A stretch of DNA of 59,851 bases, filler included, from Catajapyx aquilonaris (taxonomy: Eukaryota), in NCBI GenBank assembly GCA_000934665.2. It is 3 parts of 3 records of this genome, joined end to end, with 100 filler letters (N's around TTAATTAATTAA, not from the genome) between each part and the next. Parts side by side here need not be neighbours in the genome. Positions count along the whole stretch, not along the records: positions 39,872 to 59,851 come from KZ539526.1; 2 more parts are not named here. One strand, written 5' to 3'. This document shows, piece by piece, positions 5,901 through 59,851 of this stretch (its first letter is position 1; every line of letters begins with the position of its first letter). The position numbers and the translations under genes were made by a program. The notes under the pieces are model-generated. The model did not search any database and had not been told where the DNA came from. It saw only the letters and a program-made list of their open reading frames with translations.

Positions 5901-6103
5901 TGCCAGGTAGATAATATTACCTCATCAGGGATCTGTATTCTGAAAGGTTTAACGCTGGTGTCCTCAGTCTTGGGCCTCTCCTCAGCCCAGAACTGGTCGT
6001 CTGGCAGGACTGGCATCTGCGGTACATCGCAGCAGCCGAACCAGAGGGCTATCCCGATGGCCGAAACTGCACCCAGGAGAAACAGCCTGGCGAACATTCC
6101 CAT
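2992..6103 (-). CDS. JHEH: Microsomal / juvenile-hormone epoxide hydrolase (EPHX1/JHEH family), 465 aa; exons 6103-5921, 4604-3939, 3540-2992
   Basis: N-terminal membrane anchor, HGWP oxyanion motif, QGGDWG nucleophile Asp, GYFHLQATKPDT, FPNE acid residue and GGHFAAMEQP His. Phase-0 GT-AG introns give a 1398-nt CDS. Confidence 0.95.
5284..5355. repeat. Fold-back palindrome (about 35-bp arms) next to an AGAT/AG microsatellite in the epoxide hydrolase intron
   Basis: AAGATAGAGACGATTTTGCATTTGACTCAAGTGCAA-C-TTGCACTTGAATCAAATGCCAATCGTCTCTATCTT, apex at 5320. Confidence 0.85.
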
Positions 6104-18615: not shown

Positions 18616-19680
18616 TTAGACGGAACAAAACCCAGCATCAGCTGTGTTCTCTGCAATAAACCGGTAGTAGCTGGAGAGCCTGGTGTAGACATCCGGATAT
18701 CTAGAGTCACCGCAAGCTCCTGAGATTCCGAAAGAGACGAGTCCGATCTGCGTCCATCGTCCTCTGCCTGTGCGAACCATCAGCGGACCACCGCTGTCCC
18801 CGTTGCAGGTACCCATGTTGGACCAACCCTTCTTCCTACAATATCAACAGAGACAAGTCAATCGAGAGCACATAGTGCATATGTCTATCAGAAAGAAGCA
18901 ACACACCTGTTTGTGCACACCATTGAAGGTTGGATCCGTCCTCCCAAGTTTCTCCATGCTGCTTGGCATACGCGGTTGCTTAGGATTTGGACTGATAACT
19001 CTATTAAAAAAAAATGCAGTCAAGGACCGGCATGTACGCAACTATACAAGACGAAATACCTCTTAGAATCCGAGGAAGCTGTCCCCGGTAGCTAATTCTT
19101 CCCCATCCAACGACGGTTGCATCGGTACCGGACAAGTTAGGTGCTGGAGGTCCAGGAAGGCAAATGGGCGCTGCATTCCTTCCGAATGTGACGGGCTCAT
19201 CAAGCTGAATCAAACCGACGTCATTGTATAAGCTGCCCGACTTGTATCCAGGATGAATAATCAATTTTTCTCCATTCCTTAAAATCGCCGAAGAATTTGG
19301 CTTGCGTCGATTGTTGGAACCTAGTCGAATCTTGACACTGCGGGGTCTGCGTATGCCTTCAAGGCAGTGAGCAGCGGTCAGGACGTACTGGTCGTTTATC
19401 AGGGAGGCTCCACAAAAGACTGGTTTTGAAATGCTTCAGTGTGAAGTCACATGCTAGGCAAAATATTGGGATATGATCATTTGAATCACTTACACCCAAC
19501 GTTCTTAAGGCTGAGAGAGGCCATCCATGGGTACTCGTTCGTCCCAGCTGTTTGGCCTCCAACTATCTTCTCAGCTTGGTCAGCGTAGATTTGCCCACCA
19601 CAGATGCAAGAAGGAAGTTGGGTAGAGGCAGGGTTGGTACCTATCCACAGAGTAAGAATGAATAGCACCAGGCCGGCCAT
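18616..19680 (-). CDS. Secreted S1A serine protease, 286 aa; exons 19680-19494, 19419-19060, 19000-18907, 18835-18616
   Basis: Signal peptide, CICG..EK|IVGG activation site, EYPWMASL, FCGASLIN, LTAAHC (His57), NDVGLI (Asp102), PICLP, GWG and GDSGGP (Ser195). Phases sum to 861 nt. Confidence 0.93.
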
Positions 19681-39871: not shown

Positions 39872-40764
39872 GCAACTGTTTGATTTCTGCACAGGTCGCC
39901 ATGTTGCCAATTTAACCAGCGGAGGGGAGAAGCGAAACGCGCAAACGTCCGACCTTGCCGGACTCTCTAGCCTGTCTGTTATTTATGAATTTTTACAAGC
40001 TATGAAAGATACAAATTGTTTGCGGACCAAATGGAACAAGGGCATAAAAAAGCAAGTAAAAGAACACACAGATTGCTTCCCAACCTAACGGTGCGGTGCA
40101 AGAATGGCAAGAACTACAACACTATTTAAAACATACACTTCAAAAAGATAGCAAAACCTGACATAACAAATAAGCTTCATCATAATACCATTACTTTACT
40201 ATAAAATAATTGTTGTCAATGCGCATTTTAATGGAATATTTTAAAGTTCCCATTGGCACAACCAACCTCGTGTCTACTTCTGGAGTGCCTGCAGATTATG
40301 GAAATATTTTGCATCATGATGGCTGTTTCATTCTTACTCATACTTCATACTTGACATTGTTTATCATAATCCATGTCAAACACATGAACACTACAATCCT
40401 GCACATTTGTTTAAATAATAATAAGTGGTCACAGTCATGTTAATCATATAGCAATGCCACAAATGAACGGAAAATGTGACTGTAATTATTACTTCTCTTG
40501 CCAGCATCCAAACCTTCACTCATATACAAGAGTGGTTTACACATTCAGTAGCAATAATACTTTCAAATGCATTATTCTCGCATATTCATCCCTCGCTGTT
40601 TTTCATTTCTATCAGCTCCTGGAAATGCAAGCAAGCTTCCAGTTGTACGACATAATGCCTTAAAGTAAGCTGTACTACGTAATTAAACAAGACATGTTAG
40701 GTAATAGTGTAATATTAAATTGTAGTAATGCTAAAATTGCCATCATAAAGTTAGTGAAGACCTT

Positions 40765-42893
40765 TTATTCGCTTTTCTTTTCAATTATTGTGTCTAAAAT
40801 GCGATTTATAGTTAGGCCCTGCTGGGCAATTGTCTGGAGAAACATTTCTGTAATTTTTTGCTCATGCTCTCTGGCAGCCTTCAACTCTTTCTTCTCCTCC
40901 TTATGTGTCTCTTGGACTGCTTCAATTTCATTCAGCAATCTTTCTGTGGTGGCACAACAATAGTTTGCATGTGTGTCATCAGTTCTTGTGCGCTTACGGG
41001 CAGAACTATCTTCTGCAGCTGGAGGAAGTAAATTTAAAAAAAACACACATGTTATTTGAATCGTGATACATATATGTACTGTATTATGAAAGATTTAATT
41101 GCGTAATGTATTTGAACTTGATATGGTCCCCATGCATGTTCAATACCAACCTAATTGTAATGAATTCCCAGAGAAAATGATGTACATGCCAAGTTGGTTA
41201 GAAGAGTGTATACAGTGGTATACAGTATTCTGACAAGTTAGTGACAACCACAAGGTCTGCGAAAGGAAGCAACATGTCTGTCTCCCACTGCAGGTGGAGA
41301 CAGACAAATTTTTATCTACATATTAATTGGCATAATTGAGACCAACCATGGTTTGTCTCAATAATGGCAATTAATGTACATATTTTTTAAGTGAAAACTT
41401 ACTGAATGTGTGAATCATAGAAAATGGTGCGATAAGATTACGCGAATCAACAAATGAAATATTTCCAAAAAGACCAGGAAAGAAATTGTACAGTCATGGA
41501 TAATTACCAAACAATTAGTCATGACATAATGTTTCAAAAAAAACCCTTCCTTTTCTGTGAGGAAGAGGCAAACATACAGGTTAGCCCTATCCCAAAGTAC
41601 AGTAATTACTCCCAAACTTCCATGTAGCGATGCAGGCCATCACATTGTGACTTCCTTGGCAGGAAGAAATAATTCAGTTATGTTAAATAAAGCTCAGATG
41701 TAATTCAAGCTGAATATATTGACTGGATTGATTGATATGTCAAAATCTTAATGGGTATCACTATAGTATCGGAGAGTTCAGTTACAAGGTCAAGTTAACC
41801 GTAGCTTTGGCACCTTCCCACTTACAATAAAAGTGTTCAAACCTTTGTCATTATTTGTGGATTCCTCATCACTACCTATCTCAGATAAGGAGTCTTGGGA
41901 CGGTCCAGCTTGGTTATCATGGCCTGAAATGATCGTTGTTAATACTCGTCGTATTATTGTTATCAACCATTTCGCTACCAGCTATAGGCCAAAACGTCAA
42001 TTTATATACGTACCTTTTTAGCCCTCCTTAATTATTGCTTTCTACACTTCATAGAAAAATGCGGCAAGTCCCCAAGTGTAAGTGGATCGTTTTGCAACAT
42101 TGTAAGTCAAATTTTACGCACACAGAAAAATGGCCGCGTCAGGTGACACGCTATGGTAGTCAGGTGACGATATCCAGTTTGACTCGGCAAGCAGAGTCAC
42201 AGTCAGTTCACTCTCCACACAAGTCGCCTGACACCTCAGGGGAGTCAAAGGACCACCCCTCCCCGAACTGCTCTGACTATCCTGGCGAGTCCACTGATGA
42301 CCCTGGGGAGTCCCTCGACCATCCTGGCGAGTCACAGGACACCCAAGAGGAGTCAAATCCTTTGACTCCCCTGAGGTGTCAGGCGACTTGTTTGGAGAGT
42401 GAACTGACTCTGCTTGGCGAGTCATGACTACTATAGCGTGTCACCTGACGCGGCCATTTTTCTGTGTGCGTAATTAGGATAGTTTAAAATCATACAATGT
42501 ACTAGGCTATAATTATTATGTAAGTTATGCGCATGGCAGAATTTTTTAAAATGAAAATCCAAATCTATTTATTCCAGAGCTACAAAAGTTGGAGATCGCA
42601 TGTATTGTTATTATCACAACTATAGTAATAATTGCTAATGTCACTGTAATTAATACATGCCGAGACGTACATATTATAATCTATTGAGCATACAAGTAGA
42701 ATTGAAATGCATCCAGCCAATGTTAGCAGATTGGAGTTATTTACACCAACAAGTGGCTTTTTTGCTCTATCACCTGGTAAAGTCCATTTAGTCTTAAAGA
42801 TTCGCAATGTTATATATGAAAGTGTGGAGTTCTGTCGGAAGAAACTTACCCCTCTTGTAATTCTGTGGTTGTGCTGATGGCCGATCCGGTGTT
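40765..42893 (-). CDS. Partial multi-exon gene of unknown function with an acidic linker and C-terminal coiled coil; candidate exons 42893-42850, 41923-41843, 41018-40765
   Basis: Polypyrimidine-AG acceptors and GT donors with compatible phases. Translation ..GHDNQAGPSQDSLSEIGSDEEST..SARKRTRT..ERLLNEIEAVQETHKEEKKELKAAREHEQKITEMFLQTIAQQ..KKSE*. AATAAA overlaps the stop. The 5' end was not found. Confidence 0.45.
42117..42470. mobile_element. Long-TIR MITE with CAC termini and internal GAGTC subrepeats (CACTA/EnSpm-like or TA-targeting MITE)
   Basis: Inverted arms of more than 100 bp starting CGCACACAGAAAAATGGCCGCGTCAGGTGACACGCTAT; flanked by TA. Internal approximately 21-bp CCTGGCGAGTC repeats. 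Confidence 0.85.
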
Positions 42894-43188
42894 CTGCAAG
42901 GTAGAATAAACATACCTGGAAGAAATGCCTAAAAATTCATGTCTTGCAGACTAGACTGCATAGGTTTTCCACAGTAGACATGCATCGATGCATGCAGGAT
43001 TTTTTAGTGGCAGATTTCACTGCACTTTGCCTACCATGATTGGAATTCATCCTGCCAGATTGCCCTTCGCTGACACTTGCACTGACAGTTTCTACACTCC
43101 CTGGGTCTGTAATGGAACCAATATAGCAGTTATAGCTTATTGAAAATGATCAAATGAGAAATTTTTAGAACATACTGTACATTCACAA

Positions 43189-43741
43189 GAAGGGTTAAAT
43201 GCAATAAGGGGTTAAGTCCACTTTTGGGGCAAATGGAGATTTCAGGCGCAAAGTGTGGGGGAAAAAAATTCTGCATCAATATGTGTAAGAAGGGTACACG
43301 TACCTAGAATAGCAGGCGACATATGCCCATACAATATATTCTTTTGTGCAACAAAGTTGTGCAACAAAGAGGCACGTCCATGGACGTGTATCGCTACTGC
43401 ATTATCTTGCTTTCAACATCACTGCTATAAGGATACAAGTCCGGCTGACGTGTACCCTTATTGCACGAATCTGATCCTTTATCAAGATGGATATCCTTTA
43501 TCAAAGATGGTGCTAAGCTACTATTATTCGGATTTCATTGCCTTCCCTAGACTTTGTTGAGCTATAACTACAAACTTATGACAATTAAGAATCGAGAATG
43601 AACTGGCATGGTCCTAAGGTGAGGAGTGACATAATATTTAATTTTGGATGCAATAGCTCTATTCGTTTTTTCAATTGGTTTTTTCTTGTTTAACAAAAGT
43701 TGGGTTCTGTGGACTTAACACCTTATTGCATTTAACCCTTC
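43189..43741. mobile_element. Non-autonomous DNA transposon with 33-bp TIRs
   Basis: GAAGGGTTAAATGCAATAAGG(G/T)GTTAAGTCCAC inverted at both ends with one mismatch. TSD not evident. Confidence 0.8.
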
Positions 43742-44280
43742 ATATTGATAATTATGTTCTTTCCCATTGACATGCTGCATGCGTACATGTAGGGCCTACT
43801 GCTTTCTGTTGTTAGCTACACTCTTCCTTCTATCATCTGGAAATGGCCAGGAATGGTGGTCGTTAGAGAACACTTCTGTTTAAAGTTTGGTCTCTTTCCT
43901 GCCACAAAATGACTCCAGTTTTTCTAGAGAAAATAGCACACAACAGGTGTTTATTTATTTGAATACAAAGGAGCTATCTTCTAGAAGATTAGATTACATG
44001 GGGGATGGGGCAAATTGAGGCAAACGAAGAGAAAATTGAAGACAAAAGAAAGGCTGTGGATCTTCCTTTGCCTATCCTCCTTACTCCAAAACGATCTAAT
44101 ATACCAGGTTTATTGGGTAAACAAGTTCCTTATGATCTCTCAAGAAGCAGGTGGTTAATCTGGATAGCTCACAGTCCACTTTTTCTTTTCGGAAATTCCA
44201 TGTAAAAGATGTGGCATCATAATTATGAAAATGTCTGTCACATAACTGGTAGGTTCTTTAGCAACAACCTCCGGAACTAC

Positions 44281-45360
44281 AGTATTTGCATAAATTCCAT
44301 GTCAATGTTTATAAGCAGTTTAATTTTCTTAACAAATATCAACATACAAACTAATATTCAGTTACACAACCACAACATAACAAAGACATAGTGATCGCAT
44401 ACAAAAATATTAAAACGGATACTGGTACCTAGTCTTCCACAGTACGGCACCTTTGAAACTGATATATAGAGAAGAGGTTCCCAACCTGGGGTATGTGGGA
44501 GGATTTCAGCGGGGGGGGGNNNNNNNNNNNNNNNGTGGTTGGGGGGGGGGGGGGGCGTGAGGCTATGAGAAATAAGGAAAATAATGTAACATGCTTGCGC
44601 TTGGCGCTGCTGGAAATAATTATGAAGGGACCGACTGTTCTACTTCCTTACATCCGACAGTCATTCCTGAAGGTCTCGCCTCATAAATATTTTTACGTAC
44701 AGTAGACTATTTGCATAAATTCCATGCAAATATTATGCAAACACTGCATATAAAATTATTTATGAGGTGAGACCTCAGGAATGACGTAAGCAGTGCAGTG
44801 GTTCCCAACCTTCTTTTTTTTTTTTTTTTTTGATCGCGGCTACGCACACCGAAAATTCTGAAGGCACCCAGGCACCCCTAACTTCATAAATAATTAGTAT
44901 AATACTTCTGTTGCAAATAGTGCCTTAACGGCTGGGTAAGTCCATTAAAATCCTTAAGAGTCAATATTTCATAGTGAATAGTGGTATATAGTAAATGTAG
45001 TTATATTACATTTCAACAGTATTATGACACTTATTGTATAAAATATTATAACACCATCGATTTCTAATTTCATTTTCGCCCGTGGCGTAACCGCGGAAAA
45101 CTATATAATTATATGCCATTTTTTCGCGTCACCCCTGAATGACATCCGCGGTACCCCAGTTGGGATAAATGTCAAATTGCTGAGGAGAGAAATAAAATTT
45201 CCATGCCAATTTTTAACCTATTCAATTTTCTTTAAAGATCAACACGCAAACTAATATTCAGTTACACAACCGCAACATAACAATGTAGACATTGTAAAGA
45301 CATCATGATAACTATTACACCAATTTTAAAACGGAGAGTATTTCCACAATACCTTTGGAT
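44281..45360 (+). repeat. Diverged local duplication (44281-44456 vs about 45197-45360) separated by TE insertions and a fold-back at 44660-44785
   Basis: Shared CAAACTAATATTCAGTTACACAACC.CAACATAACAA...TTAAAACGGA. Inverted GTCATTCCTGA..GGTCTC.CCTCATAAATA arms. Confidence 0.65.
44796..45171. mobile_element. hAT/Charlie-like MITE
   Basis: 5' CAGTGGTTCCCAACCT and a degenerate 3' GTTGGGATAAATG end, with GGCACCC subterminal motifs. Confidence 0.55.
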
Positions 45361-46654
45361 GCGCCAGTCGTTCCCAGAGTGGGACCGTTGAAAGGCAAGA
45401 CGCAAGAGTCAACTCCAAAAAAAAGTCAAGAGATAAATCATCTTTAGATTAAAAGGGGAGACCAAAATGTCCAAAAATCCCACCCCCAAGCCTTTTTGTC
45501 CCTATCGCTTCTCTTTCCATCGAGGGCCGAATATGTCCCTTTTCTGGCTTATAGGACCGTTCCCCATCGTCCCCCGGACCCTCGGGTTTCTTTCTTTGTG
45601 TAAGGTACTTCTGTGTGTGGAGGGTCCCGAGAGAGCCCGGTTTTTCACCTGGCTAAATGGTTTTGCAATCCCTTCCATAAAAATCCGGCACTCTAGGCAA
45701 GGCCAGCTACTTGAACCCACATCTCAAACAATGCAAGTGGAGATTACACGGTTTCTGGTTTTAGTCACAACTTTTAAACATGAACAAATCACTATTATGA
45801 GTCGAAAAATCATATATCAGAATGATAAGAAACAAAGTTACAAAGGTTTTTCAGACTTTCTGGACTGAGAAAGAATATCCAGTGTATATCATACTACTTT
45901 CTACTCACTCAAGTACCGTGCTAACACAAGGCTTGACGAGACAGTCCATGCGATGCGATGGCATGGGTCAAGATAAATGGCCTCACCTGCCCCCCTGGGT
46001 GTAATAAGTTATTAAAGGTTACTCAAAAGGGGCCATAAACTTAAGTGACATGCACATGTGACACCACGTTGGTTACATCATGATATGTAGGGCTATTCCC
46101 TCCGGTCTTGTCGCAAAATTAATCATGCCAAAACGTAATACTACAATGCAATAGGTGGAAATAGAATACGTACAATTTCATATAGCATACTACGCATATA
46201 TTATGAAATGCAAGTTAACCTGTTACCATATACGTAAAAATAGTGAAGAGCTTTTCTTGCCTTTTCGTAGCTCACATTCCCTTTCATAGTTTCATGTCAA
46301 AGCTGCATTCCTCTCTATTATTCACATCACTCTACTCTATGAGGTAGTCATGATTCATGCTAAAGTGCAGTCTATGCTGACCAGTTCTCGGAAGTGAAGT
46401 TTAGTGTCCTCTTATGCTTTCGTGACAACACACAATTGTCCTCAATTGTTGAGAGCATTTACCCAGCGAGTGAATTTTCTTATCTCATTATTGTGTTGTG
46501 TCTGTCACATTTCTTGCGACCACAATCAATTGGAGACACACAAAGTGCGCCGAATGAAACACTCATAAACCACGACGCATAGATCTTTCTGACATTAAAA
46601 TAATTATAACCAGAGTTGAAGAGCAGTACTAAAGCTATACGAGCGTTGTTCAAG

Positions 46655-48580
46655 ATGTGGTCTTCTGCCGTACTGGTGCTACTATCGCATCTTTGGACAT
46701 GTTACGCAGCAGGTCAAGTGACTCGAACAGAGCTGGACAATGAAGACCTGCTGGTGTCTACCCTGCTGGCAAATCTTGTGATGACTAATGAACTTAGAGA
46801 GTGCTCTTTGGCTGTAGTGTGGAATTCGGATTGGATTGGTCATCACATACGAATGGCATTACTCCTGCAAGGTCATCTCTACCGTCCCATAGTACTGAGC
46901 AAGATGCCAAAGGACTACCACCATCCTTTGGACAAGTACAAGTGGCTGACCTCAAGAGACCAGCTGTACAACTTCAGAACCATGCCCCCTGACCTCAAGT
47001 CCCGTCTGTGGCCTGGAGGATCCTGCACCTTCCACTTCGTCATGGTAACCCACGCCTCACTCTTTTCGGACATAGTGCTTCACATGGTGGAATCAGTGCA
47101 CGTGAAGAACCTGGACTCCAGGTTCCTCTTCCATTTCCAAGAGGGAGATCCGGATCAGGTCATGTTGAGGTCACCTGCTGAAGGAATCAAGTTCAAGTTA
47201 GCAACAAAGGTCACTCCTGAAGGTCTGTCACTGTCCACTGTGTGTCTGTACTGCAATTCGGGTAAACCGGTCATCACGAGCCTTGGTCTGTACGAGAACA
47301 CCACACAAAACCTGTTCCCGGACACAGCACGGTTTATGAACGGCCATGAAGTGAATACTGTGTACATCTCAGACGTCGACATGGAGCAAGTTCGCAAAAC
47401 TGATCGTGAGTTTGGTGAAAACGCGAACTACATCACAACCCGGGGTTTTGCAGTCAACGAGCAGAAGCTTGGGCTGCGATTCACTGTACATGAGTTGCAG
47501 AATCTGGAAGAAGACTTTGAGCACAGATTGCCTAACGGGTCATGGAGTGGAATGGTTGGAGAAATCTTGACTGGTAAAGCGGACAACTCCGTGTTCACTG
47601 TGCTGACAGACGAATCGGCCAGGTTTGTTAGAGCCACGTTTCCGGTACTGTACATAACATTCAAGTTCGTTGCTAAGGCGCCTCGAGGTGTAATTCGATG
47701 GCAAATTATATACGAGCCATTCGAGCCCATGGTATGGTTAGCATTGACCGCTGGTGTGGCCCTATCAACCGTCGTTGTGTTTGTAATATTCCGGAGTCGG
47801 TATGCTTCATCGCCAGTGACATTCGTCAGGTCTGCCAGTTTCGCAGTACGAGCTTTGATAGAGCAGCCTGTGGATCTTCCGTCCTACCAAGTGTTTTACG
47901 CGTTTGCAGCATTTTACGCAATTTTTTATATCGTGATTGCTTGTGCGTACAGAGCCAAACTTGTGGGTTTCTTGTCCTATCCTAGAAAAGAGTTTGTGCC
48001 TTCCACGTTCGAAGAATTGGTCGATTCAGACTGGGATTACGGAGCGCCGCTAATTGAATACTTGGCACTCAGAAAAAACGCGGCTCTAGCCGGAAATTCA
48101 TTGTACATAAAATTGATGAAAAATGCTGAATTAGGCGGGGAAATTGAGCAATGTCTTGAATCGGTCATGTCTCGTAAAAAATTCGCTTGCATTTGCTCCG
48201 ACATCAGACTCGACATGGAGAAGGCCAAGTATGTGGACTTGGATGGCCACCTCAGAATACAAATATCGTCTGAGGGAATCATGAGCATGTTTCTTTCCCC
48301 GATATATGGCATGGGAGAGACATTTGCTCCAGCCAGCGAAGAACTGCAGAAGAGATATGTAGAAGCCGGAATTTTCAACCAATGGCTCATTGACGACGAA
48401 TTCAAAAGTTTTGCCAAGTATGTGCTGCCAAATTATAAGGGCGTATTGCAAGGGATGGTGGAGGAAATGGAGAATGATATATTTAGTATGGAGGAATTGT
48501 CAGCTCCGTTTTATTTGTTGATTTTTGGAATAACTATTTCCACAGTTGTGTTGGCAGTGGAAATGTTTTATTCTGCTTGA
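46655..48580 (+). CDS. Divergent ionotropic receptor (IR, variant iGluR chemoreceptor), intronless, copy 1
   Basis: First ATG at 46655 with a signal peptide. S1 LPNGSWSGMVGEI, IYEPFEPMVW-M1, pore ALIEQP, M3 CAYRAKLVGFLSYP, PSTFEELV, S2 RYVEAGIFNQW, MEELSAPFYLL-M4. Confidence 0.9.
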   Translation: MWSSAVLVLLSHLWTCYAAGQVTRTELDNEDLLVSTLLANLVMTNELRECSLAVVWNSDWIGHHIRMALLLQGHLYRPIVLSKMPKDYHHPLDKYKWLTSRDQLYNFRTMPPDLKSRLWPGGSCTFHFVMVTHASLFSDIVLHMVESVHVKNLDSRFLFHFQEGDPDQVMLRSPAEGIKFKLATKVTPEGLSLSTVCLYCNSGKPVITSLGLYENTTQNLFPDTARFMNGHEVNTVYISDVDMEQVRKTDREFGENANYITTRGFAVNEQKLGLRFTVHELQNLEEDFEHRLPNGSWSGMVGEILTGKADNSVFTVLTDESARFVRATFPVLYITFKFVAKAPRGVIRWQIIYEPFEPMVWLALTAGVALSTVVVFVIFRSRYASSPVTFVRSASFAVRALIEQPVDLPSYQVFYAFAAFYAIFYIVIACAYRAKLVGFLSYPRKEFVPSTFEELVDSDWDYGAPLIEYLALRKNAALAGNSLYIKLMKNAELGGEIEQCLESVMSRKKFACICSDIRLDMEKAKYVDLDGHLRIQISSEGIMSMFLSPIYGMGETFAPASEELQKRYVEAGIFNQWLIDDEFKSFAKYVLPNYKGVLQGMVEEMENDIFSMEELSAPFYLLIFGITISTVVLAVEMFYSA

Positions 48581-49602
48581 AAAGGGACTGATACAAATAA
48601 GCGAAATGTTACTGCCAAATCTTGGGACAGATTTCTGAGATAGGATACTCGAAAATATTGCTCCTTATTATGTAAAATATCCCTATACATAAAATGGTAT
48701 CCTGATTGTACTGCATTTTACTGTGTTTTTGCCATAATTACAGTATGTGTATATAAAACACTGCATTTATGTAGTATAAGTTTATGCGAAAAGCAGATAT
48801 GTTTTTAGAAATATTTCATACGGTAGGTAACTTTTATACGCGCATGATATCTTTCAGTGCCTGTATACGTACAGCAAATAAAGTAGTTATGATGATTACT
48901 TTGTATAATTTTTTGTTTCTTTCAATATAGGATTACAAGCAGTGATTGAGTGAGATTTATGCAGATGCGGAATTGTTTAATGGCGCAGACTACGATATTC
49001 TGCAAAAAAAAATCGTACATAATTACACCTGCAATCCCTACCTCGCAGCATCAAACAGAATTAATCATACTCTAATTTTCAGCTGCAAATATTTTTATCC
49101 CCTATGCAAAAGGAACAGGCTAAAATAATCATTGTATGTAGGGTAGTGTATACACTGCATAACCTCTTAATGGTCACAGCTCAATAATGTATAGAATATG
49201 GCGGGTGCTTTAACCGAGCCATGCAGGCCTTCGTTCATCGACCTCACACACCACGCAACGTGACTCTTACTTCTGCAGTTAATCAAGTTGATGGGTAGCC
49301 CGAGCTGATATCTTGTCTATAGAATAAAAAGAGGTCGACCTCTTGCACTTGATATCATTCTCTCTAAATTATTTATGTAGCACTATCCGAAAACCATGTT
49401 TGCCTTCCATTATTTACCAAACAATTTCATCTTTGTCATTTACTTCCATTTGAATAATGATGAGTCTGGTAAAAACACCTTTGATATATTTTTGTATGTA
49501 TAGAGAGTAGGCCACATACAAAACTTGAAGCGTGACAATTGGGTCCAATATATATGACAGGTTAGCATGCAATTCAGTTCTCTTCCTCAGTGAGTATTCG
49601 TT

Positions 49603-51540
49603 ATGGCAGGTGTGTGGTATTGTGCATCAGCAGCATTGTGTTTATGGATTTGTGCAGTGGGACAAGTGATTCTGTCAGTGGACAACGAGGACGTGCTTGT
49701 GTCTACTTTTGTAGCAAATCTTCTGCGGACCCCAGACCTACAGAAATGTTCGTTAACATTTCACTCAGATTCAGATCGCACTGGCAGCAAAACTCAAGAC
49801 ATGTTATCTGAACAAAGCTACCAGTACCGTCCTGCAGTACTGAGCAGGATGCCAAAGGACTACCACCATCCTTTGGACAAGTACAAGTGGCTGACCTCAA
49901 GAGACCAGCTGTACAACTTCAGAACCATGCCCCCTGACCTCAAGTCCCGTCTGTGGCCTGGAGGATCCTGCACCTTCCACTTCGTCATGGTAACCCACGC
50001 CTCACTCTTTTCGGACATAGTGCTTCACATGGTGGAGTCAGTGCACGTGAAGAACCTGGACTCCAGGTTCCTCTTCCATTTCCAAGAGGGAGATCCGGAT
50101 CAGGTCATGTTGAGGTCACCTGCTGACGGAATCAAGTTCAAGTTAGCAACAAAGGTCACTCCTGAAGGTCTGTCACTGTCCACTGTGTGTCTGTACTGCA
50201 ATTCGGGAAAACCAGTCATCATGAGTTTAGAAGCCAGTGATAATTTAAATGGTTTTTTTCCTGACACTGCAAAATTTATGAATGGTCACGTGGTAACATG
50301 GGTGTTTGTTTATGACATAAATATGGATGAGTCGCGTCGGATTTGGAAAGAGCATGGAGAAGCTGAGCTGCTCATTTTAGCTCGAGGATTTGTAGTCGGC
50401 GAGGACAAGCTGGGTGTAACTTACAAAGTGCATGATATTCTAGACCTGCAGCCAGACTTTGAGAACCGGCTTCCCAACGGGTCTTGGAATGGAATGGTCG
50501 GAGAAATCCTGACATACAAGGCGGATGCTGCAGTATTCACAGTCTTGACAGAAGAATCGTTCAAGTTCGTCAGAGCATCAGCCCCGATACTTTTCGTGAC
50601 ATTCAAATTTGTCACGAAAGTTCCACATGGTGTGATTCGTTGGCAAGTGATCTACGAACCTTTCGAAGTGTTTGTGTGGCTATCTGTAGCAATCAGTGTG
50701 ATCGCGTCGTCTGCAGCAGTGTATTTCATCTTTAGAGCCAGTTTTGTTAGCCCCATGTCATTCACAAGATCATTGTATTTCTCACTTCGTGCCCTTCTAG
50801 AGCAACCAATTACCATGCCATCACATAGAGCTTTCTATATGTTTGGAGCGTTTTATGCCATGTTTTGCATTGTCATGATTTGTGCCTACAAGTCTAAGCT
50901 TGTTGCCTTCTTGTCCTCGCCCAAAAAGGAATTTGTGCCATCCACGTTTGAAGAATTGATCAAGTCTGACTGGGACTGGGGGATACCTATCATAGAATAT
51001 TTCGGGCTAAAAAAATCATCCGAGCTGGCCAAAAACCCACTGTACACCAAAATGATGGAAAAGGCTGCACTAGGCAGTGATCTTCCACAATGTCTAGATG
51101 CAGTCATGTCCAGAAAAAAATTCTCGTGCATATGCGCTGATATCAGGCTGGAAATGGAGCAACCCAAGTACTTGAACTTGGATGGCCTTTTGAGAATTCA
51201 AATCTCGTCTGAGGGAATAATGAGCATGTTTCTCTCTCCAATATTTGGGTTTGGAGAGGTTTATGTTCATGCCATAGAATGGATGCATAGAAGCTTTGTC
51301 GAAGGTGGTATTTACCGTAAATGGCTATCAGATGACGAGTTTAAAAATTTCGCAAAGTATGTACTACCTAATACGAAATATTTACTGGAACAAATGGCGG
51401 TGCAAATGAACAATGATATATTGACGATGAAGGAATTGTCGGCTCCGTTTTATTTGTGGATATACGGAGTAACAACCGCTGTCTTGTTACTGGCTGGGGA
51501 GGTCATATACTTTTCTTGGAAGTACAATAGTAATCGATAA
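49603..51540 (+). CDS. Divergent ionotropic receptor (IR), intronless, copy 2 (tandem paralog)
   Basis: 645-aa ORF collinear with copy 1: LPNGSWNGMVGEI, IYEPFEVFVW, CAYKSKLVAFLSSP, PSTFEELI, FVEGGIYRKW, MKELSAPFYLW. Confidence 0.9.
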   Translation: MAGVWYCASAALCLWICAVGQVILSVDNEDVLVSTFVANLLRTPDLQKCSLTFHSDSDRTGSKTQDMLSEQSYQYRPAVLSRMPKDYHHPLDKYKWLTSRDQLYNFRTMPPDLKSRLWPGGSCTFHFVMVTHASLFSDIVLHMVESVHVKNLDSRFLFHFQEGDPDQVMLRSPADGIKFKLATKVTPEGLSLSTVCLYCNSGKPVIMSLEASDNLNGFFPDTAKFMNGHVVTWVFVYDINMDESRRIWKEHGEAELLILARGFVVGEDKLGVTYKVHDILDLQPDFENRLPNGSWNGMVGEILTYKADAAVFTVLTEESFKFVRASAPILFVTFKFVTKVPHGVIRWQVIYEPFEVFVWLSVAISVIASSAAVYFIFRASFVSPMSFTRSLYFSLRALLEQPITMPSHRAFYMFGAFYAMFCIVMICAYKSKLVAFLSSPKKEFVPSTFEELIKSDWDWGIPIIEYFGLKKSSELAKNPLYTKMMEKAALGSDLPQCLDAVMSRKKFSCICADIRLEMEQPKYLNLDGLLRIQISSEGIMSMFLSPIFGFGEVYVHAIEWMHRSFVEGGIYRKWLSDDEFKNFAKYVLPNTKYLLEQMAVQMNNDILTMKELSAPFYLWIYGVTTAVLLLAGEVIYFSWKYNSNR

Positions 51541-52917
51541 GCAATCCACTTGGTTTATTCTTGGGTCCTAAAAGCAATCACCTCCCTATTACATTTATCT
51601 ACACAGAGATCCTTCAAATATGGTCAAGTTCCTTTGACGGCAAATAAATATGAATTGTTGACACATGCTGAAATTGTTGTCAAAATTTTTCATGTTTTAA
51701 TTAACATCAACGAAGTCGAGGCACAGTAGATTTCTCTAGTCAGCAGTAACAATAGATGGTGGTCAGGTTGGAATTATTAATACTTTAATCCTGCAGGGGG
51801 ATTTTTATTTGCACAATTTTTGGGCAGAAGCACTGAAAAAATAGAAAGTGGTTGTGAGCCAGCTTTCCTGGAATTACTTGGGTAAATCTGGAAGAAAACT
51901 CCTAGTTAGGATGGCCATCCCCAGGACTTAAAACCCAATACCATAATATGTAAGTGATTCACGTCAAATGGCATAACTATTTCCCATTGCATGTGATCAT
52001 CTACAAGGTACAGTACAGTGTTCAAACCTGAAACAAGTTTTTGGTACTCACTCAGTATTTTCTTGTATCTACAAGTCCTTGGCATAATTATTTTTTTCCA
52101 TGTGGCCATTCTTGCACGATGATCCCTACTCCAATTACTACGTGCATTCCTGAGACACATGCATTATTCAAAACACTTCACAGTACAAATGTAGAAAAAC
52201 AGAAAATAGAGGCAATTACACACTTTTCCTGTTACTGAATTTAATACAGCACATACTAATCATATGCAAGAGTGCACTGACATTCCATGTAACAAAAATA
52301 TTTCACTGTTGAGGACTGCTAAACCACACGAAACCATTAAAATGTTTGGTATAATTCTGTGTTCTGAATCTAGCCCTGACATCTCCATTTCAGAGACAGA
52401 CATTTGATGAATTTCATCACTTTCACAAGTGCATATGGAAGAAATGAAGTTCTGTATAGTAAATCAATAATGCAGTGGACAGCAGTCCTGTCACATTCTT
52501 TTCCAGAATATGCAGCACAGTTGTCATCATCTATTCTGGAATCTGCACTCTACTGCACAAGCCAACGAAGTCTGAAATGCAAATTATGTGAGAAAGGTGG
52601 TCGCGCCAAGGTAATCATAGAAAACAATAAAAATTTGAGCGAACTTTAGGAACCCATGCCAACCTCCTGGTATGCACCAATGTGCTCAGCCTAGGTACAA
52701 GAAAGAACATAATCAGCATAATGATCCATACATGTTTTAAGTACATGCACAGAGAGGAAAGAATGAGAGCACACTGCCCGGAGAAGGTGCTACCATGTGC
52801 ATGGCTACTAATTTCTAAGGATAATAACCCAAATGTTTAGCGTCATCTGTGTTGGTACTGCCTACAGGTTGTATACACTTCCACATTTTCACACTCATAC
52901 TTTTTCGTCTTGCACTG

Positions 52918-53246
52918 GGGAGCTGAATGACTTGCAGTGGATGGCTATTATCTGCTATTATGTAATGCAGGCTATGATGACATGGAAGGGAATCTACGGG
53001 TCATGTCTATACCTTCTTTTGCGCATGTTTAATTTTTCCAGAAAATTTTTAGATGCATTGTGGAAAGTTGAAGGAAATGCAAATAATCTTGCATCATATG
53101 CTAATTTTATTGATACCTTACAAATGATAAGTTATGGTTACAAAAGGTGCCCAAGACTTAGCTACATCTACATGTGGAAAGAGGCCATATCACAAAAAAA
53201 AAATTAAAATATTTTTTCTGTGTCTGTGTTTCAAAGTTTGGGCATA
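52918..53246 (+). repeat. Dispersed repeat, copy A (homologous to 59467-59851)
   Basis: Collinear shared blocks GGAGCTGAATGACTTGCAGTGGATGGCTATTAT, GGAAGGGAATCTA, TCTTGCATCATA..CTAATTTTATTGAT, AAGTTATGGTTA and AAGACTTAGCTA. Confidence 0.8.
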
Positions 53247-54838
53247 TTTACTCGTAAATACCAGGGACTAAAGTGACCATTGCAACTGAAGATAATGTCA
53301 GACACATTGTTCTGATAGTGGTTGAGACAGCCACACAGAATAAAAGCACCTATTGACATATATCATTCAGATATCAATGCAGACATCTGTAACATCACAC
53401 CACGAGTCATTACAGTCTCATGATGGTGTGATGCAGACAGTCACAGGAGTATACAGAGGCAGCCCAACTATTTATCGATTTAAAATAAGTACCGTTTCAC
53501 AATTTTATACCCATTTCATACCCATCTGGGATTCCCTAATAATGTTACCATTAGTAATGTCTGTGTCATATAGCAACCTGAAGATGGACGAAATCCAGAG
53601 TGGCAGAAGCAGGAGGCCAGCAGAACCTTAGCAGGAAGACAAAAAACTCACCCAAATATAGGGTAATCAATTTTGAGATGCTATTTTCAACGTCACCTAT
53701 TACAGGTACAGTACCAGCATTGCATTTTGATTCAGCGCAAGTTCCTTTTTGCAGTTACCTATCATGGGGAAATTACCTTTTGGACAATTCCATTACTGGT
53801 TGGTGTGCCTCATGAAGGTGATCTTACCTTCAGCTAAATTGTTTGTTGGTTGCACATACACTTACGAACACATCATACTGTGGTACGAGTTGTACATACA
53901 TTTACGAACCCATCACACTGTGGTCACAACCAATACGTACACCCATAACTTTCTACGTATATGTCAATGATTGGCTTCTGAATTATTTTTTCCAAAAAAA
54001 TTACAAAACATGATACTCGTAAGTGTCGATCCCAAAAGTTACGGAGTTACCTGTCACTGGATTCATGGATAGGTTAGGATCGGATATTCAGGCGGCGCAC
54101 CTGCTGGCCCAAATATCATTTCCTACCACCGGGTGTATACTCAGGTGGCGCTAGCCTGCTGCCCCAAGTATGACCCCCAGTCGGTTACCTATGCACCAAT
54201 GGACCCTATCTGAAATCACACACAAGTGCTCAATTCAAATCAGGGCCGACAAGTCAGTCAGTCGGTCGGTATCTATAGTCTCAGGGGGAGAGCACTCCGG
54301 AGAGGTCCTTCCCCTTTGACCTCTGCCAACTGACTGCCTGACCGAGCCGGCTGTCGCTTTATTTACACCTCGGTTTGTTTGTCAGCGTCGTGGGCAACAC
54401 GTGTTTCCAACTAACATCTCCATGGAGTTTGATACACAGCAACCGGAAACATGGTTACACCACTACAACAACCATACATTAAACAAGACAATCTTACCAA
54501 TTGGTAAGGAACATAATACAAAATCTACTAATGAAAAAGAGACATTACACAAGTTAGGTGTAGTAGGTGGCATTGTCATTAGTCAATCCAGTTGTCTATA
54601 TTTTATTTGGAATAAATTGACTGCACAACATTATGAACAAGTCAAAACAGTATTTCCTTTTTCTTCCATCCACAACCTTGACTGATAATAATCCACATGA
54701 ACTTTGTAAGTAACTTTAGACAATAAAATTATAACCACACCCAAATTGTAAATCTAACAGTAACCCTCGTCAGGACAATATATATGGGTGTCAGTCTGGG
54801 GCATGGAACCACTGAAAAGTTCTACCCCAACTTGCAGT

Positions 54839-57800
54839 TCATGTGTTTCCAGCATGTACTTTTGCATGAAAGGAGAGTGCAGTCAGGGTAGGAAACATCA
54901 GATTACATACTTTACAAGCAATAGGCTTGTCAGCCATGTGTGACATTTTGTGGGCTTGCAAATTAGTTCGAGAACAGTATGATTTGTCGCATATGTTGCA
55001 TGTAAATGACTTTTTACCTGAATGTATCCTCATATGTGCCATTAATGCAGAATGTTGCAAAAACACTTTGCCACACAATTCACAGATGGCTGTCTTCTTC
55101 TTGGTGTGCACTGTGGCATGCTCCAGCAATTGAGAAACACTTTGAAACATCTGTTTGCAGGTAGGGCAAGTCACAGTGTTTCCTGAAGATAAATTCGCAA
55201 GGGGGTCCTGAGTCTCTGTGGTACTAGTTGATGCAACCAGCACTATTTCCATCTCTTCTTCTCTAGGCATTGCTAATGAAGTCTTGGCTGGATTTGCGGT
55301 CTGCAAATAATAATAACAATGAAAGAATTTTGATGCATATAGTGTGGAGAAGAGTTGCTTACCTGCTCTGAACAAGTTGCTAATGCATGCACTGTTGAAA
55401 AGTTGTTTTTGTCAACTTGCCCCACCAGATCTTCTCCGCTATTTGTGGAATATTCATCAGAGCCATCCTCCAAATAGCTCATGGAATCATCTGGTTCTAT
55501 TTTACAGTTCACCTTATAAGGAAGATTTAAAAAAAAATTACTTCAGAAAGTTCTAACACCTGAAAGCTGCCTACATGAACAATTAGCAAAAAATAACCCC
55601 TGGATTGCAAACAAGTACATCATATATTACCATACATTGCATCCATTTCCATACTTTCCCTTCCCTGAATCGAAATGTTGATTTGATTTCTAAAAATGTT
55701 TGTGGCATACATAAATACGTAAGCAAGAGATGAAGTAAAAGTTAGAACACGAGAGGCATTACCATTTCTATTTCTGGCATCTCTAATTCTTCCTGGCCAG
55801 AAAGGCTTCCCCCAGACTCAATGTGTGGACCTTGTGGCACATCATCTATTGGGGAAGCTTCTGATGGAAATATTTCAGCATCTGACTTGTCATTTCCACT
55901 GGGAATACCTACAGTACACGAAATATTGTATGTTAAAAAAGTATTTACCACAAATTGGCATTCACTTACCAATGGTAGAATTATTCTTACTGGCTCCAGA
56001 AGTATCTTCTACCTCAGCAACACGTTTCTAAAAGTATACAAAGTATCAGTAATGATCCAGAATTTACAAAATTTTTGGATGATATCTCCACATAATACTT
56101 CTCACAAGTACATATTGCATCGAAGTTAACACCTAGGGAAAACAGATCAACGAACATTACTAGAGAACGGATTTCTAGCTTTTTACCTACTTTTCCTTCT
56201 GTAGGCAGAACACCGGAACCAAAATATCTATCCATTTTATAACACAAGGACCTCTAAAATTGTATTTTATAGTTAACCTATAATTGCCTATTTCGGGCAT
56301 TGGGGCCTAAGTGGCCTATTAGTGCCTATTTTCACCTTTTTGACGCCATTCCGTAAGATTTTCGAGAGTTTCGTGGAGAGGTCCGTTCAAGGAATCCTTC
56401 CCACTTTAACCCGTGATGGGTGAAGAAGCCATAGGCATGCCAGAGGAATTGACTGTCGATGACATTTCACTTTTCAAGTATATGATCCAGTTACTTCCTG
56501 TGACATCAAAATGTCATTTTCAGCAAATAAAGATGTATTTTCAGACACCAAATAATTGCCATTAATCAACGAAAATATGCAACAACTATTAGTTTGTTAC
56601 TGTGCTACAAAATTCCATGCCCAAGAGTATGCTGTAATGTTGCATAGGAATGAAAATAAATTAGGACCTGCTTGATTTTTAGTGCCTATTTAAGAGCCTA
56701 TTTTGACTGTTTTCAGGTCCTAAATGCCTACCTGTTTGAGGGTTTTTCAGAACCTAAAAATCCGTTCTTTAAACATTACCATATATTAAAGAATTGTGGC
56801 CAAAAATCTAACATATACCGTATTACCTCACATAAAGCGGCATGCCGGTGTAGCCGAGGTCGACAAGTTTTTAGAAATGCACGTTCTGGTGGCTATACCG
56901 GCATGCCGGTATAGGGCGAGGTATGTTGGTATAAGGTGAGGTTTTCATATGATACATTATCCTTTCTAAACTCGACATTTGCCTGAAAATCGAAATTCAC
57001 GTAAAGGCTATGGAAAAGGCACATTTTCCAAATAGGGTACCCGTACCATATATTGTTTTCAATTGCAGTGTTTGGCAATAATCTCTATTTAAACAATAGG
57101 TTAGAGCAGGGGGTTCCCCTGTCAAAGCAGGCTGACGATGGGATTGGTCATACGCTCTACATTTTTTAACGCACTGTGCAATAGAACTGACATATTCTCA
57201 CACCCTGTATACTCGCCCATTTTCATTGTAACATTATTTTAGTATGGTACCAGAAGCATTACAAAAAATTTGGCAAGGATCAAAATTACGGAAATCTACC
57301 TCGGTTATTGCATGCTGGCAACCCCTGGGTTATACCGGCATACTGGTCGACTTCGTTTTATATCGGCATGCCGCTTTATGTGAGGTAATACGGCAACATC
57401 TCTTTTGGCAAATTATTTTACATGTATAACATATATCATGATCTACTCTGACAGAGATGTAGCATAGTCATCATCACCTCTGGTTCATGTAATCATGGTA
57501 GATCTCATTTACTACTTCCTTTACGTTTCTTAGATTGAAAAACTAGATCTGCATGAGGTACAAAACCATATTTAGAGCCAGCATGTACAGTGTTGGACAT
57601 AAATCGAGGCATACTCCTAGCGACATTTTCCACAGCGGCAGAAGAAGGAATCTTGCTCGCCCAGCTTGTAAGTATGCTTATCTCCGATTCCTTCTTCTGC
57701 CGCTTCGGAAAATGTCGCTAGCCACCAATGCCTCGAATGCCTCGATTAATGTCCAACACTGTACTATAATGAACCTAGATCCCTTCCCTGTAGCACAATA

Positions 57801-58698
57801 CAGTAAAACTTCTATAAGTCGAATCTCCATGGGAGTTTATTTCCTGTTATTTTACATTGTGATTGTTGCATACTGGTGCAACCAAGCTCATAATTTACTT
57901 CAACTTAGGGAAGTTTGACTGTATTGTAACCCACTTTGCCTTGCAATGAACAGGATTTTGACATGTATAATTATGTTCTGATGCACAAAAGTTTCATCCA
58001 GCCAGTATATCTCAGAAACTGGATATCTCATCAGTATGCTTCACATGTTCCGGAGATATATGGTCCGGAGGGTTACCACATCACTCCGTTCCATAAGCAC
58101 CTTGCGGCCTTCAGGTGTGCGTGAGAACTTCAAACCCATGGAGAGCATGACCTGCCGCATAGACGTCCTGCCTCCTTTCCACCCTGTACTCCTCTGGAAG
58201 GCCTCTCGCAGGCGTTCAATAGTTGGTGGAGTGTTCTGCACCATCATGTCATGGTACAGTCTCCGCAACAAATCTTTGTCGAAACTGTCGGCCTGTGTGA
58301 CAGGACTCCCCCTCTTGTGGTGTTTACCTGTCAACAGGAATATTCATTATGTATTTATTACACGACATAGTACGGTTTCCACCTTTCGCAGTGGCAAGCG
58401 GCACCTACACACAGGGGCATGCATGCAGAACATGAGAAGCAAGTTTTATACCTGGGGTGGTAAAATTCGGCGCTTCCTTCGCTATCCTCGAGACCATGTA
58501 GTAATTTACACCCGTGGCATCAGCTGTCCTTTGAGTGGCTCTGGCAACGTCGCAGAGGGGCCCACCGGCCTCTTTCTCTCTCTTGAAGTATGTGTACACC
58601 CGATTGATCACTTCTCGGGTTTGGCCTGTCAAAATCCTCCTAGGGTTATCGCCTACCTCCTCAGAGGGACCCAACCCAAGTTTGCCGCTCTCCGACAT
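54839..58698 (-). CDS. Predicted transposase-derived DNA-binding domain fused to 4 C2H2 zinc fingers (about 437-446 aa); exons 58698-58452, 58327-58077 (or 58101), optional 56132-56106, 56027-55970, 55908-55763, 55512-55363, 55300-54839
   Basis: The last exon has four C2H2 fingers (CPTC..HATVH, CELC..HMRIH, CNIC..HKMSH, CKVC..HAKVH), preceded by acidic linker exons. The first two exons encode QTREVINRVYTYFKREK..ATQRTADATGVN..VSRIAKE and GLKFSR..RKVLMERSDV, typical of arthropod DDE_3/ITm transposase N-termini. All junctions are GT-AG and phase-compatible. The splice joining the two halves is inferred. Confidence 0.75.
56161..56771 (+). mobile_element. hAT internal-deletion derivative retaining a transposase C-terminal dimerisation remnant
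   Basis: TIRs TAGAGAACGGATTTCTAG / TAAAGAACGGATTTTTAG. 8-bp TSD AACATTAC at 56153-56160 and 56772-56779. GCCTA subterminal repeats. Remnant PVTSCDIKMSFSANKDVFSD..ENMQQLLVCYC at about 56486-56603. Confidence 0.88.
56818..57393. mobile_element. pogo-like MITE with CCGTA termini
   Basis: TIR CCGTATTACCTCACATAAAGCGGCATGCCG is perfectly inverted at both ends. TA on the left, CA (probably mutated TA) on the right. Confidence 0.85.
57588..57761. mobile_element. Tc1/mariner-type fold-back MITE
   Basis: TIRs CAGTGTTGGACAT..ATCGAGGCAT and an almost fully palindromic body. TA duplicated at 57586-57587 and 57762-57763. Confidence 0.9.
57801..57921. mobile_element. pogo/Tigger-like MITE (121 bp)
   Basis: TIRs CAGTAAAACTTCTATAAGTCGAA / CAGTCAAACTTCCCTAAGTTGAA; TA on both sides. 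Confidence 0.85.
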
Positions 58699-59466
58699 GG
58701 CAAGGTGCAGAAATCTGCTTCGAAATCACGTATTGACCGATCTACAAAGACGCAGTGAACGACGCCATCTGGAAAAGGTGCGTTCGGTTTGCTGGCACGA
58801 ATAACAGCGAGTCGGTGCATTCATGTGGCTGCGTTCAGCGCCACCTTTTAAATACAATCAAAGCCACTTTGCAGGTTGCAAAAATGATTAATTGCATGCA
58901 AAAAAAAAAACGGAGATTGAGTGCAGAAAAAAATGATGGTGCCGTGTCTGCCCGTATTGGGCGGGTTCCCCCCGGTGTCCCCCTCCCAGGCGCGATCCCA
59001 CTGCTGCCCAGCGCGGGCACGGTTGTTAGAGTATATCCTTCCTATGGTTGGACCGTCCGGCTAGTGGGCGGTGATTGGTGGANCTGGGGGCGGTGGGCTC
59101 CCCCTCCGCCCCCATGTTGGCGCGGGGCTCAGTGCGGACGCCCGGTCTGCGAGGGTCAGGCCGAGGAGATGGGGCCCCGCCCTCAGGGCATCCTCCGGCA
59201 CCGGCCTCCCAGTCGCGGGATCACAGGAGAAAGCCAACTCTCCCAGCCGATGGACAGGGCGCCAAATTGGGCTATTTATGCTGCCTTGCTCCAGGCCGAG
59301 GAGGAGGAAGGGCGGGGATAATTATGTAATATTGTCAGCATTACTTATGAACGACAATGAAAGAAAAACGAACATCTGTTGTCTTGGGTCGTACTTGGGA
59401 CTGTTGTGTTTCCGTGACATTGTATAAGCACAAAGTAGATACTTTTCATTGAATATATTGCTTCAT

Positions 59467-59851
59467 GGAGCTGAATGACTTGCAGTGGATGGCTATTATG
59501 TAGTGCTGTGCACGGCTGTGATGACAGGGAAGGGAATCTATGGGTAATAATGTCGATAACTTCTTTTGGACGTATCATTTTTGCAGCATTGATTGTAGAT
59601 GCAATTATTCACTGTGGACGGTGGAAGAAAATGCAAATAATGAGTCTTGCATCATACCCTAATTTTATTGATGTACCTCACAAGTCCCCCTCAAAAACCC
59701 ATAAGGGTTATCGCAGGGTATAAAAAATAAAAAATAAAAGTAAATAAATGATACCTTACAAGTTATGGTTATAAAAAGTGCCAAAGACTTAGCTATATCT
59801 ACTTGTGGAAAGGTAGGGATGTCTGTGTCTGTGTGTCAAAATTTGGTAATA
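59467..59851 (+). repeat. Dispersed repeat, copy B (homologous to 52918-53246), runs to the window end
   Basis: Same collinear blocks as copy A with an extra insertion around 59670-59750. Confidence 0.8.

Follow-up and report, generated by a model that had tools for sequence, protein, structure and literature searches.

Can the DNA-binding half of a transposase and a set of zinc fingers two kilobases downstream of it belong to one gene? The question is raised by positions 54,839 to 58,698 of a 59,851-nt stretch of Catajapyx aquilonaris DNA (assembly GCA_000934665.2), in which parts of three records are joined and positions 39,872 to 59,851 come from KZ539526.1; this whole stretch is hereafter the window. 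The original prediction held that exons derived from an IS630-Tc1-mariner transposase are spliced here to an exon with four C2H2 zinc fingers, yielding a domesticated chimeric factor. Our analysis points to a different answer, in which we have somewhat better than even confidence, namely that an expressed, spliced, and truncated remnant of a Sailor transposon lies beside a separate four-finger gene. All transposase and zinc-finger features of the locus are on the minus strand.

Five sequencing runs are listed for the species, none of them recorded as RNA. We treated one, X5, as a probable RNA run because its contigs skip three GT..AG introns that are retained in the DNA contigs, which come from two runs of one sample (X1 and X2). 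Stretches without X5 cover (55851-56191 and 58812-59851) are uninformative either way. The transposase-derived part opens, as predicted, with ATG 58698, upstream of which a TGA stands in frame at 27 nt. The coding part of exon 1 (58698-58452) contributes 82 codons plus 1 nt and ends at the donor CAG/GTATAA. A GT..AG intron of 124 nt (58451-58328) separates it from exon 2 (58327-58044), which stays open until the TGA at 58043-58041. This intron is retained in the DNA contigs X1 record 7 (57805-58829) and X2 record 15, and it is skipped in the RNA contig X5 record 21, where 58753-58449 is joined to 58324-58104 at a depth of 5.4. The transcript is seen from at least 58753, and RNA cover of exon 2 reaches only 58104. 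The coding capacity of the remnant is a 176-residue DNA-binding fragment only, ending at TGA 58043.

The proposed resemblance to transposases was borne out by an exhaustive HMMER search, in which exon 2 alone (94 aa) was compared with 1.84 billion representative proteins and matched 210 of them at E ≤ 1e-3. The best match, a protein of 430 aa (P0002), aligned over its residues 79-166 with 62% identity and an E-value of 6.3e-29. DDE_3 was listed for nine of the 13 matches that were scanned and lay above Pfam’s own cut-off in six of the 13; one cluster of matches contains aphid proteins named Tc1-like transposase. A tblastn search with P0002 placed its residues 3-72 on exon 1 (56% identity) and its residues 68-192 on 58340-57966, reading through the stop. 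Further, a profile built from 36 sequences (A1) matched the catalytic domain of Sleeping Beauty (5cr4) with an E-value of 1.5e-5. Pfam recognized no family in either transposase exon, and a PDB sequence search with P0002 returned no match.

The models obtained with AlphaFold2 agree with a DNA-binding role for both exons. Exon 1 (mean predicted local distance difference test score, pLDDT, of 83.8) has a disordered N-terminus followed by helices at residues 25-44, 54-62, and 66-75, which form a three-helix helix-turn-helix (HTH) unit. Exon 2 (pLDDT 88.4) comprises a GRPR-like linker and a winged helix, modeled as three helices, a beta hairpin (65-69/75-79), and a helix at 81-93. The top Foldseek rows were homeodomains for exon 1 (E ≥ 0.66) and winged-helix DNA binders for exon 2 (E ≥ 0.05), both weak. 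As modeled, exons 1 and 2 thus fold as an HTH unit and a winged helix, in keeping with the paired-like pair of HTH units expected at the N-terminus. All nine near-invariant family columns in exon 2 are kept.

By homology to DD82E transposases, the remnant is assigned to the Sailor type. According to the accessible text of Shi et al. 2021 (PMC8533490), Sailor (DD82E) is a superfamily of IS630-Tc1-mariner transposons, is reported from 174 species of arthropods, as a rule in few copies, and is marked by GT/CC ends and a TATA target duplication. In P0002, P0014, and P0021, 82 residues separate the second D from the E, the spacing by which that text defines Sailor. The closest full-length relatives of the remnant are of this DD82E kind and share its two-part N-terminal DNA-binding region, whereas the copy described here contains the first D motif only, with no terminal inverted repeats (TIRs) or TATA duplication found. 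It also differs by its spliced intron: in the accessible text on Sailor, where the word “intron” appears once, in the reference list, no such intron is described. A transposase gene of Tc1/mariner type that is split by a spliced intron resembles TLEWI, the Tc1-like elements with spliceosomal introns that are reported from molluscs in the accessible text of Puzakov et al. (10.1101/656579). TLEWI, however, are described there as Tc1-like, not Sailor, and here the front end alone survives. Separately, 18-39% of the members of the three nearest DDE_3 clusters in the ESM Atlas, which are P0002-like, carry PF27940 (“C21orf140-like”), a co-occurrence that hints at a named vertebrate relative of the Sailor-type N-terminal region.

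Downstream of the stop, tblastn and three-frame reading trace a decayed continuation of the transposase (58043-57470, corresponding to P0002 residues ~167-250). As far as its sequence can be read, the catalytic triad is incomplete, with the first catalytic D motif (YWLDET) present in the decayed part and the second D and the E absent. Four lesions are recognizable: the stop at 58043-58041, an insertion of ~120-150 nt, a miniature inverted-repeat transposable element (MITE), and a frameshift near 57515. The frame runs in order through HQNI, the insertion, ATGKGSRFIIV, the MITE, and then AGSKYGFVPHADLVFQ (15/16 identical to P0002), up to the frameshift; similarity is lost near 57470, which leaves ~250 of 430 residues traceable. 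The small insertion, at 57795-57927, has 29-nt inverted arms (I5) inside the transposase frame and accounts for the break in the P0002 alignment that separates HQNI from ATGKG. The high-copy MITE, at 57588-57761, carries 28-nt TIRs and a TA duplication (inverted repeat I4), and its DNA word depth is ~33,000, versus ~30 in single-copy flanks. A scan for inverted repeats found no pair that brackets the remnant, the 3' half of which is gone.

The remnant itself is present in a single copy at ≥95% identity, because DNA depth over 58026-58811 is 30-38, against 22-33 in unique flanks, and one contig of 1,025 nt spans 57805-58829. Low copy number is usual for Sailor, and therefore single copy alone is no sign of domestication. 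Between the remnant and the finger gene, DNA depth reaches 1,000-33,000, so that this stretch consists of high-copy repeats; among them, a palindromic repeat (56818-57393, inverted repeat I2) with a depth of 3,000-6,000 occupies much of the space between the two units. An AATAAA at 57841-57836 is a candidate poly(A) signal for the transposase transcripts.

Two kilobases downstream lies the second unit. Its terminal coding exon (55300-54842, stop 54841-54839; X5 records 17 and 18) contains four stretches of Pfam zf-C2H2_4 (E = 7e-16), and it is followed by a 3' untranslated region of at least 54838-54352, with X5 record 17 covering 54352-55099. X5 record 18 joins 55850-55761, 55510-55363, and 55300-55088; the joint 55300/55363 has CT..AC ends. 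Of the two acidic linker exons that precede the fingers, 55512-55363 is supported by RNA at both junctions, and 55908-55763 is supported over 55763-55850 and at its 3' junction. The RNA contigs of this gene have a depth of 5-6.1. The tandem C2H2 fingers thus sit in an expressed, spliced open frame. The linker that leads into them has 26 acidic (D+E) versus 6 basic (K+R) residues in 117 aa. In each exon upstream of the fingers, including a predicted one at 56027-55970, the frame that links to them is open and the other two are closed. Relatives of the finger gene were limited to 25 generic C2H2 proteins with 29-38% identity.

Where this gene starts is central to the question. Its frame is open, without an ATG, for 42 codons before the first in-frame ATG (P = 0.075 by shuffling). 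A predicted bridging exon farther upstream (56027-55970; 19 codons plus 1 nt, with a phase-0 acceptor and the donor TTG/GTAAGT) is open as well (P = 0.22 by shuffling), giving a joint shuffle P of ~0.017. A frame that stays open without an ATG through 42 and 19 codons needs an upstream coding exon, and the coding part of the finger gene therefore probably starts further upstream of 55908. The bridging exon has no RNA cover in X5. Thus, the downstream half of the original prediction stood in part: the phase-0 acceptor at 56027 exists and the finger exons are spliced in X5, while the second proposed acceptor, at 56132, was rejected, as it lies 65 nt from a GTAAAT donor and has no frame-compatible good donor.

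In the account that we favor, the first unit is an immobilized, single-copy Sailor (DD82E) remnant that kept its start codon, its 124-nt intron, and its two-part DNA-binding region, lost its catalytic core, and is still transcribed and spliced. If stable, its product would at most bind Sailor-type ends. The second is a small C2H2 gene that is expressed and in which a linker rich in acidic residues and serine precedes the four fingers; its product is most likely an ordinary sequence-specific DNA-binding factor. Its frame passes upstream of 55908, probably through 56027-55970, and may start either at a local exon, 56235-56191, or beyond the end of the window, which lies 1.1 kb above the transposase remnant. 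On present evidence, we infer that the two units are separate.

The local exon is a rival to the transposase as the first coding exon of the finger gene. It has an ATG at 56235, 15 codons, and a phase-0 donor (AAA/GTAGGT) that scores 2.92 on a crude scoring table, which was used for all donor scores given here. RNA cover ends only a few bases away, with an X5 depth of 20 over bin 56192-56453 and of 0 over bin 55930-56191; this is a hint only, as repeats overlap the stretch. The original prediction had reported no other 5' exon for the fingers. This does not hold, since a crude scan of the 3.8 kb upstream of 56027 for an ATG followed by a phase-0 donor yielded 13 candidates, 12 of them in addition to the proposed transposase exon.

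The first alternative, a fusion, is unlikely in our view, though it survives better than the other. It states that transcription starts at the remnant’s promoter and that exons 1 and 2 are spliced, from one of two cryptic donors, across a repeat-filled 2-kb intron to 56027, giving a protein of 429 or 437 residues. Both phase-0 donors exist as originally described, within 58075-58100: AAG/GTGCTT, with the exon ending at 58101 and the GT at 58100-58099, and GTG/GTAACC, with the exon ending at 58077 and the GT at 58076-58075. The stop follows 58 nt after the first and 34 nt after the second. Joining either to 56027 gives one open frame in matching phase, of 429 codons from 58101 or 437 from 58077. 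Both are weak (1.44 for 58101 and 0.10 for 58077), as are two of the three RNA-confirmed donors at the locus (1.0, 1.63, and 7.12). The donor at 55969, which is predicted only, reaches 5.05, and the donor of the local rival exon scores higher than either transposase donor. A better-scoring donor after codon 14 of the transposase frame (GAG/GTAGGC, GT at 58656, score 3.66) was considered and rejected, as it would lend a leader peptide only and the assembled contig reads through it.

Several of our observations weigh against the separation of the two units. The finger gene needs an upstream exon with an ATG, and an exon of this kind, in a fitting phase, is present in the remnant; moreover, of all GTs inside exon 2, those of donors 58101 and 58077 score best, and each is in phase 0. 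In RNA, the transposase is covered down to 58104, just 3 nt from donor 58101, by a contig whose depth of 5.4 is similar to the 5-6.1 of the zinc-finger contigs. In addition, all recognizable lesions of the transposase fall after codon 176. By our own arithmetic, the two point lesions would both land by chance among the final 74 of the 250 traceable codons with a probability of ~0.09; treating the two insertions as further independent events lowers this to ~0.008. Such a placement hints weakly that the front end is constrained, which would be compatible with a fusion and with a stand-alone DNA-binding fragment alike.

Against the fusion stands the junction itself. In X5, a single probable RNA run of low depth, contigs cover both parts, but none shows the splice from 58077 or 58101 to 56027 for which the original prediction proposed an RNA check, and exon 56027-55970 is uncovered. 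Contig ends such as those at 58104 and 55850 are typical of thin cover. The two donors also differ in what they would preserve. Donor 58101 would cut the second strand of the predicted wing and four near-invariant residues that lie past it (L77, E79, R87, and L91), whereas with donor 58077 the predicted winged helix would stay complete. The 150 best relatives of the transposase are all free of C2H2 patterns, so that none of them shows such an architecture. Similarly, no orthologue was found, and no gene model or transcript-derived protein contained the linker exon, exon 2, or the finger exon, a weak negative given that the same search also missed P0002. The 12 other ATG-plus-donor candidates, one of them stronger and local, also count against the fusion.

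The substitution pattern argues in the same direction. An intact exonic half next to a ruined intronic half of the same element had been taken as a sign of selection on the captured part. However, identity to P0002 is 55% in exon 1, 59% in exon 2 up to 58101, and 67% in 58100-57966, and ten other family members show the same gradient (30, 32, and 36%). The segment past the donor is no more diverged than the retained one; the contrast is therefore not at the level of substitutions, and it gives no sign of relaxed constraint past the donors. Overall, what stood of the original prediction is a compatible open frame and two parts that are both expressed and spliced; no contig joins them.

The accessible text of Cosby et al. 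(10.1101/2020.05.07.082677) describes host-transposase fusions such as KRABINER, SETMAR, and GTF2IRD2, in which, in eight of nine cases examined, the splice from the host exons enters an acceptor just ahead of the transposase open reading frame (ORF); for the tetrapod fusions treated there, transcripts are shown, and 81 of the 81 tested are under purifying selection. Like these, the locus has a transposase DNA-binding region in the same orientation as the host exons and with compatible splice phases. The precedents on which the original prediction drew, SETMAR and KRAB-transposase fusions, are indeed known fusions, but their polarity differs: in the cases described in that text host exons mostly come first, whereas here the transposase would come first, with a cryptic donor inside its own ORF. 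A transposase-first fusion, in which the remnant gives the promoter, the start codon, and the two-part DNA-binding region and a cryptic donor splices these onto the linker and four fingers, is in our judgment doubtful. If true, it would reverse the polarity of the vertebrate cases, bring together two DNA-binding modules of unrelated kinds, and make this the first report of a domesticated Sailor element. It would mean that transposase capture can also run with the transposon at the 5' end, supplying promoter and first exons, and it would add an arthropod case, from a family in which no domesticated member is known, to a process that has been described chiefly in tetrapods. On present evidence, the locus instead exemplifies a truncated transposase remnant, still expressed and spliced, next to an ordinary, lineage-specific zinc-finger gene. 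This is of use for annotation, where a single gene model that unites the two would require junction evidence.

The weaker alternative, in which selection maintains the 176-residue DNA-binding-only protein as a host product of its own (such as a regulator, or a repressor of related elements) that is independent of the finger gene, we consider improbable: its start codon, splice sites, and 176 codons are intact, it is transcribed and spliced, its stop sits precisely where the DNA-binding region has ended and the first catalytic D is still to come, the lesion positions suit it, and it carries an intron where relatives in the P0004 cluster are called as uninterrupted frames on metagenome contigs (the absence of introns there is itself deduced), yet the sequence past the stop is equally well kept, so that the stop may be recent and the frame not yet decayed, and RNA depth is low.

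Several features around the two units deserve mention in their own right. Upstream of the remnant, a short reading frame of nine codons (58768-58742, minus strand) stands behind a good acceptor-like site, ttttccag; its ATG at 58768 precedes the start of the RNA contig by 15 nt. Farther upstream, a GC-rich, moderately repeated element (58830-59320; DNA depth 70-360, with an N at 59083) adjoins the promoter region of the remnant. The depth of the MITE at 57588-57761 implies roughly a thousand copies in the genome. We rejected this MITE as a binding target of the remnant’s DNA-binding region, as its ends and TA duplication are those of classical Tc1/mariner elements and not the GT/CC ends and TATA of Sailor. 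In the finger exon, 54861-55258 is split into short DNA contigs, and a contig of variant sequence, itself at full depth, departs from it at 54869-54878, 55042, 55070, and 55091, which a near-identical paralogue of this exon (or more than one) elsewhere in the genome would explain.

Elsewhere in the window, epoxide hydrolase exons (EHN and Abhydrolase_1) occupy 3870-4661 and trypsin-type protease exons occupy 19007-19435, both on the minus strand. On the plus strand, two long uninterrupted frames of 656 and 648 aa follow each other in tandem (46610-48577 and 49594-51537). The first has no Pfam match and the second contains a ligand-gated ion channel domain (Lig_chan, E = 8e-8); together, they look like intronless genes of the ionotropic-receptor type.

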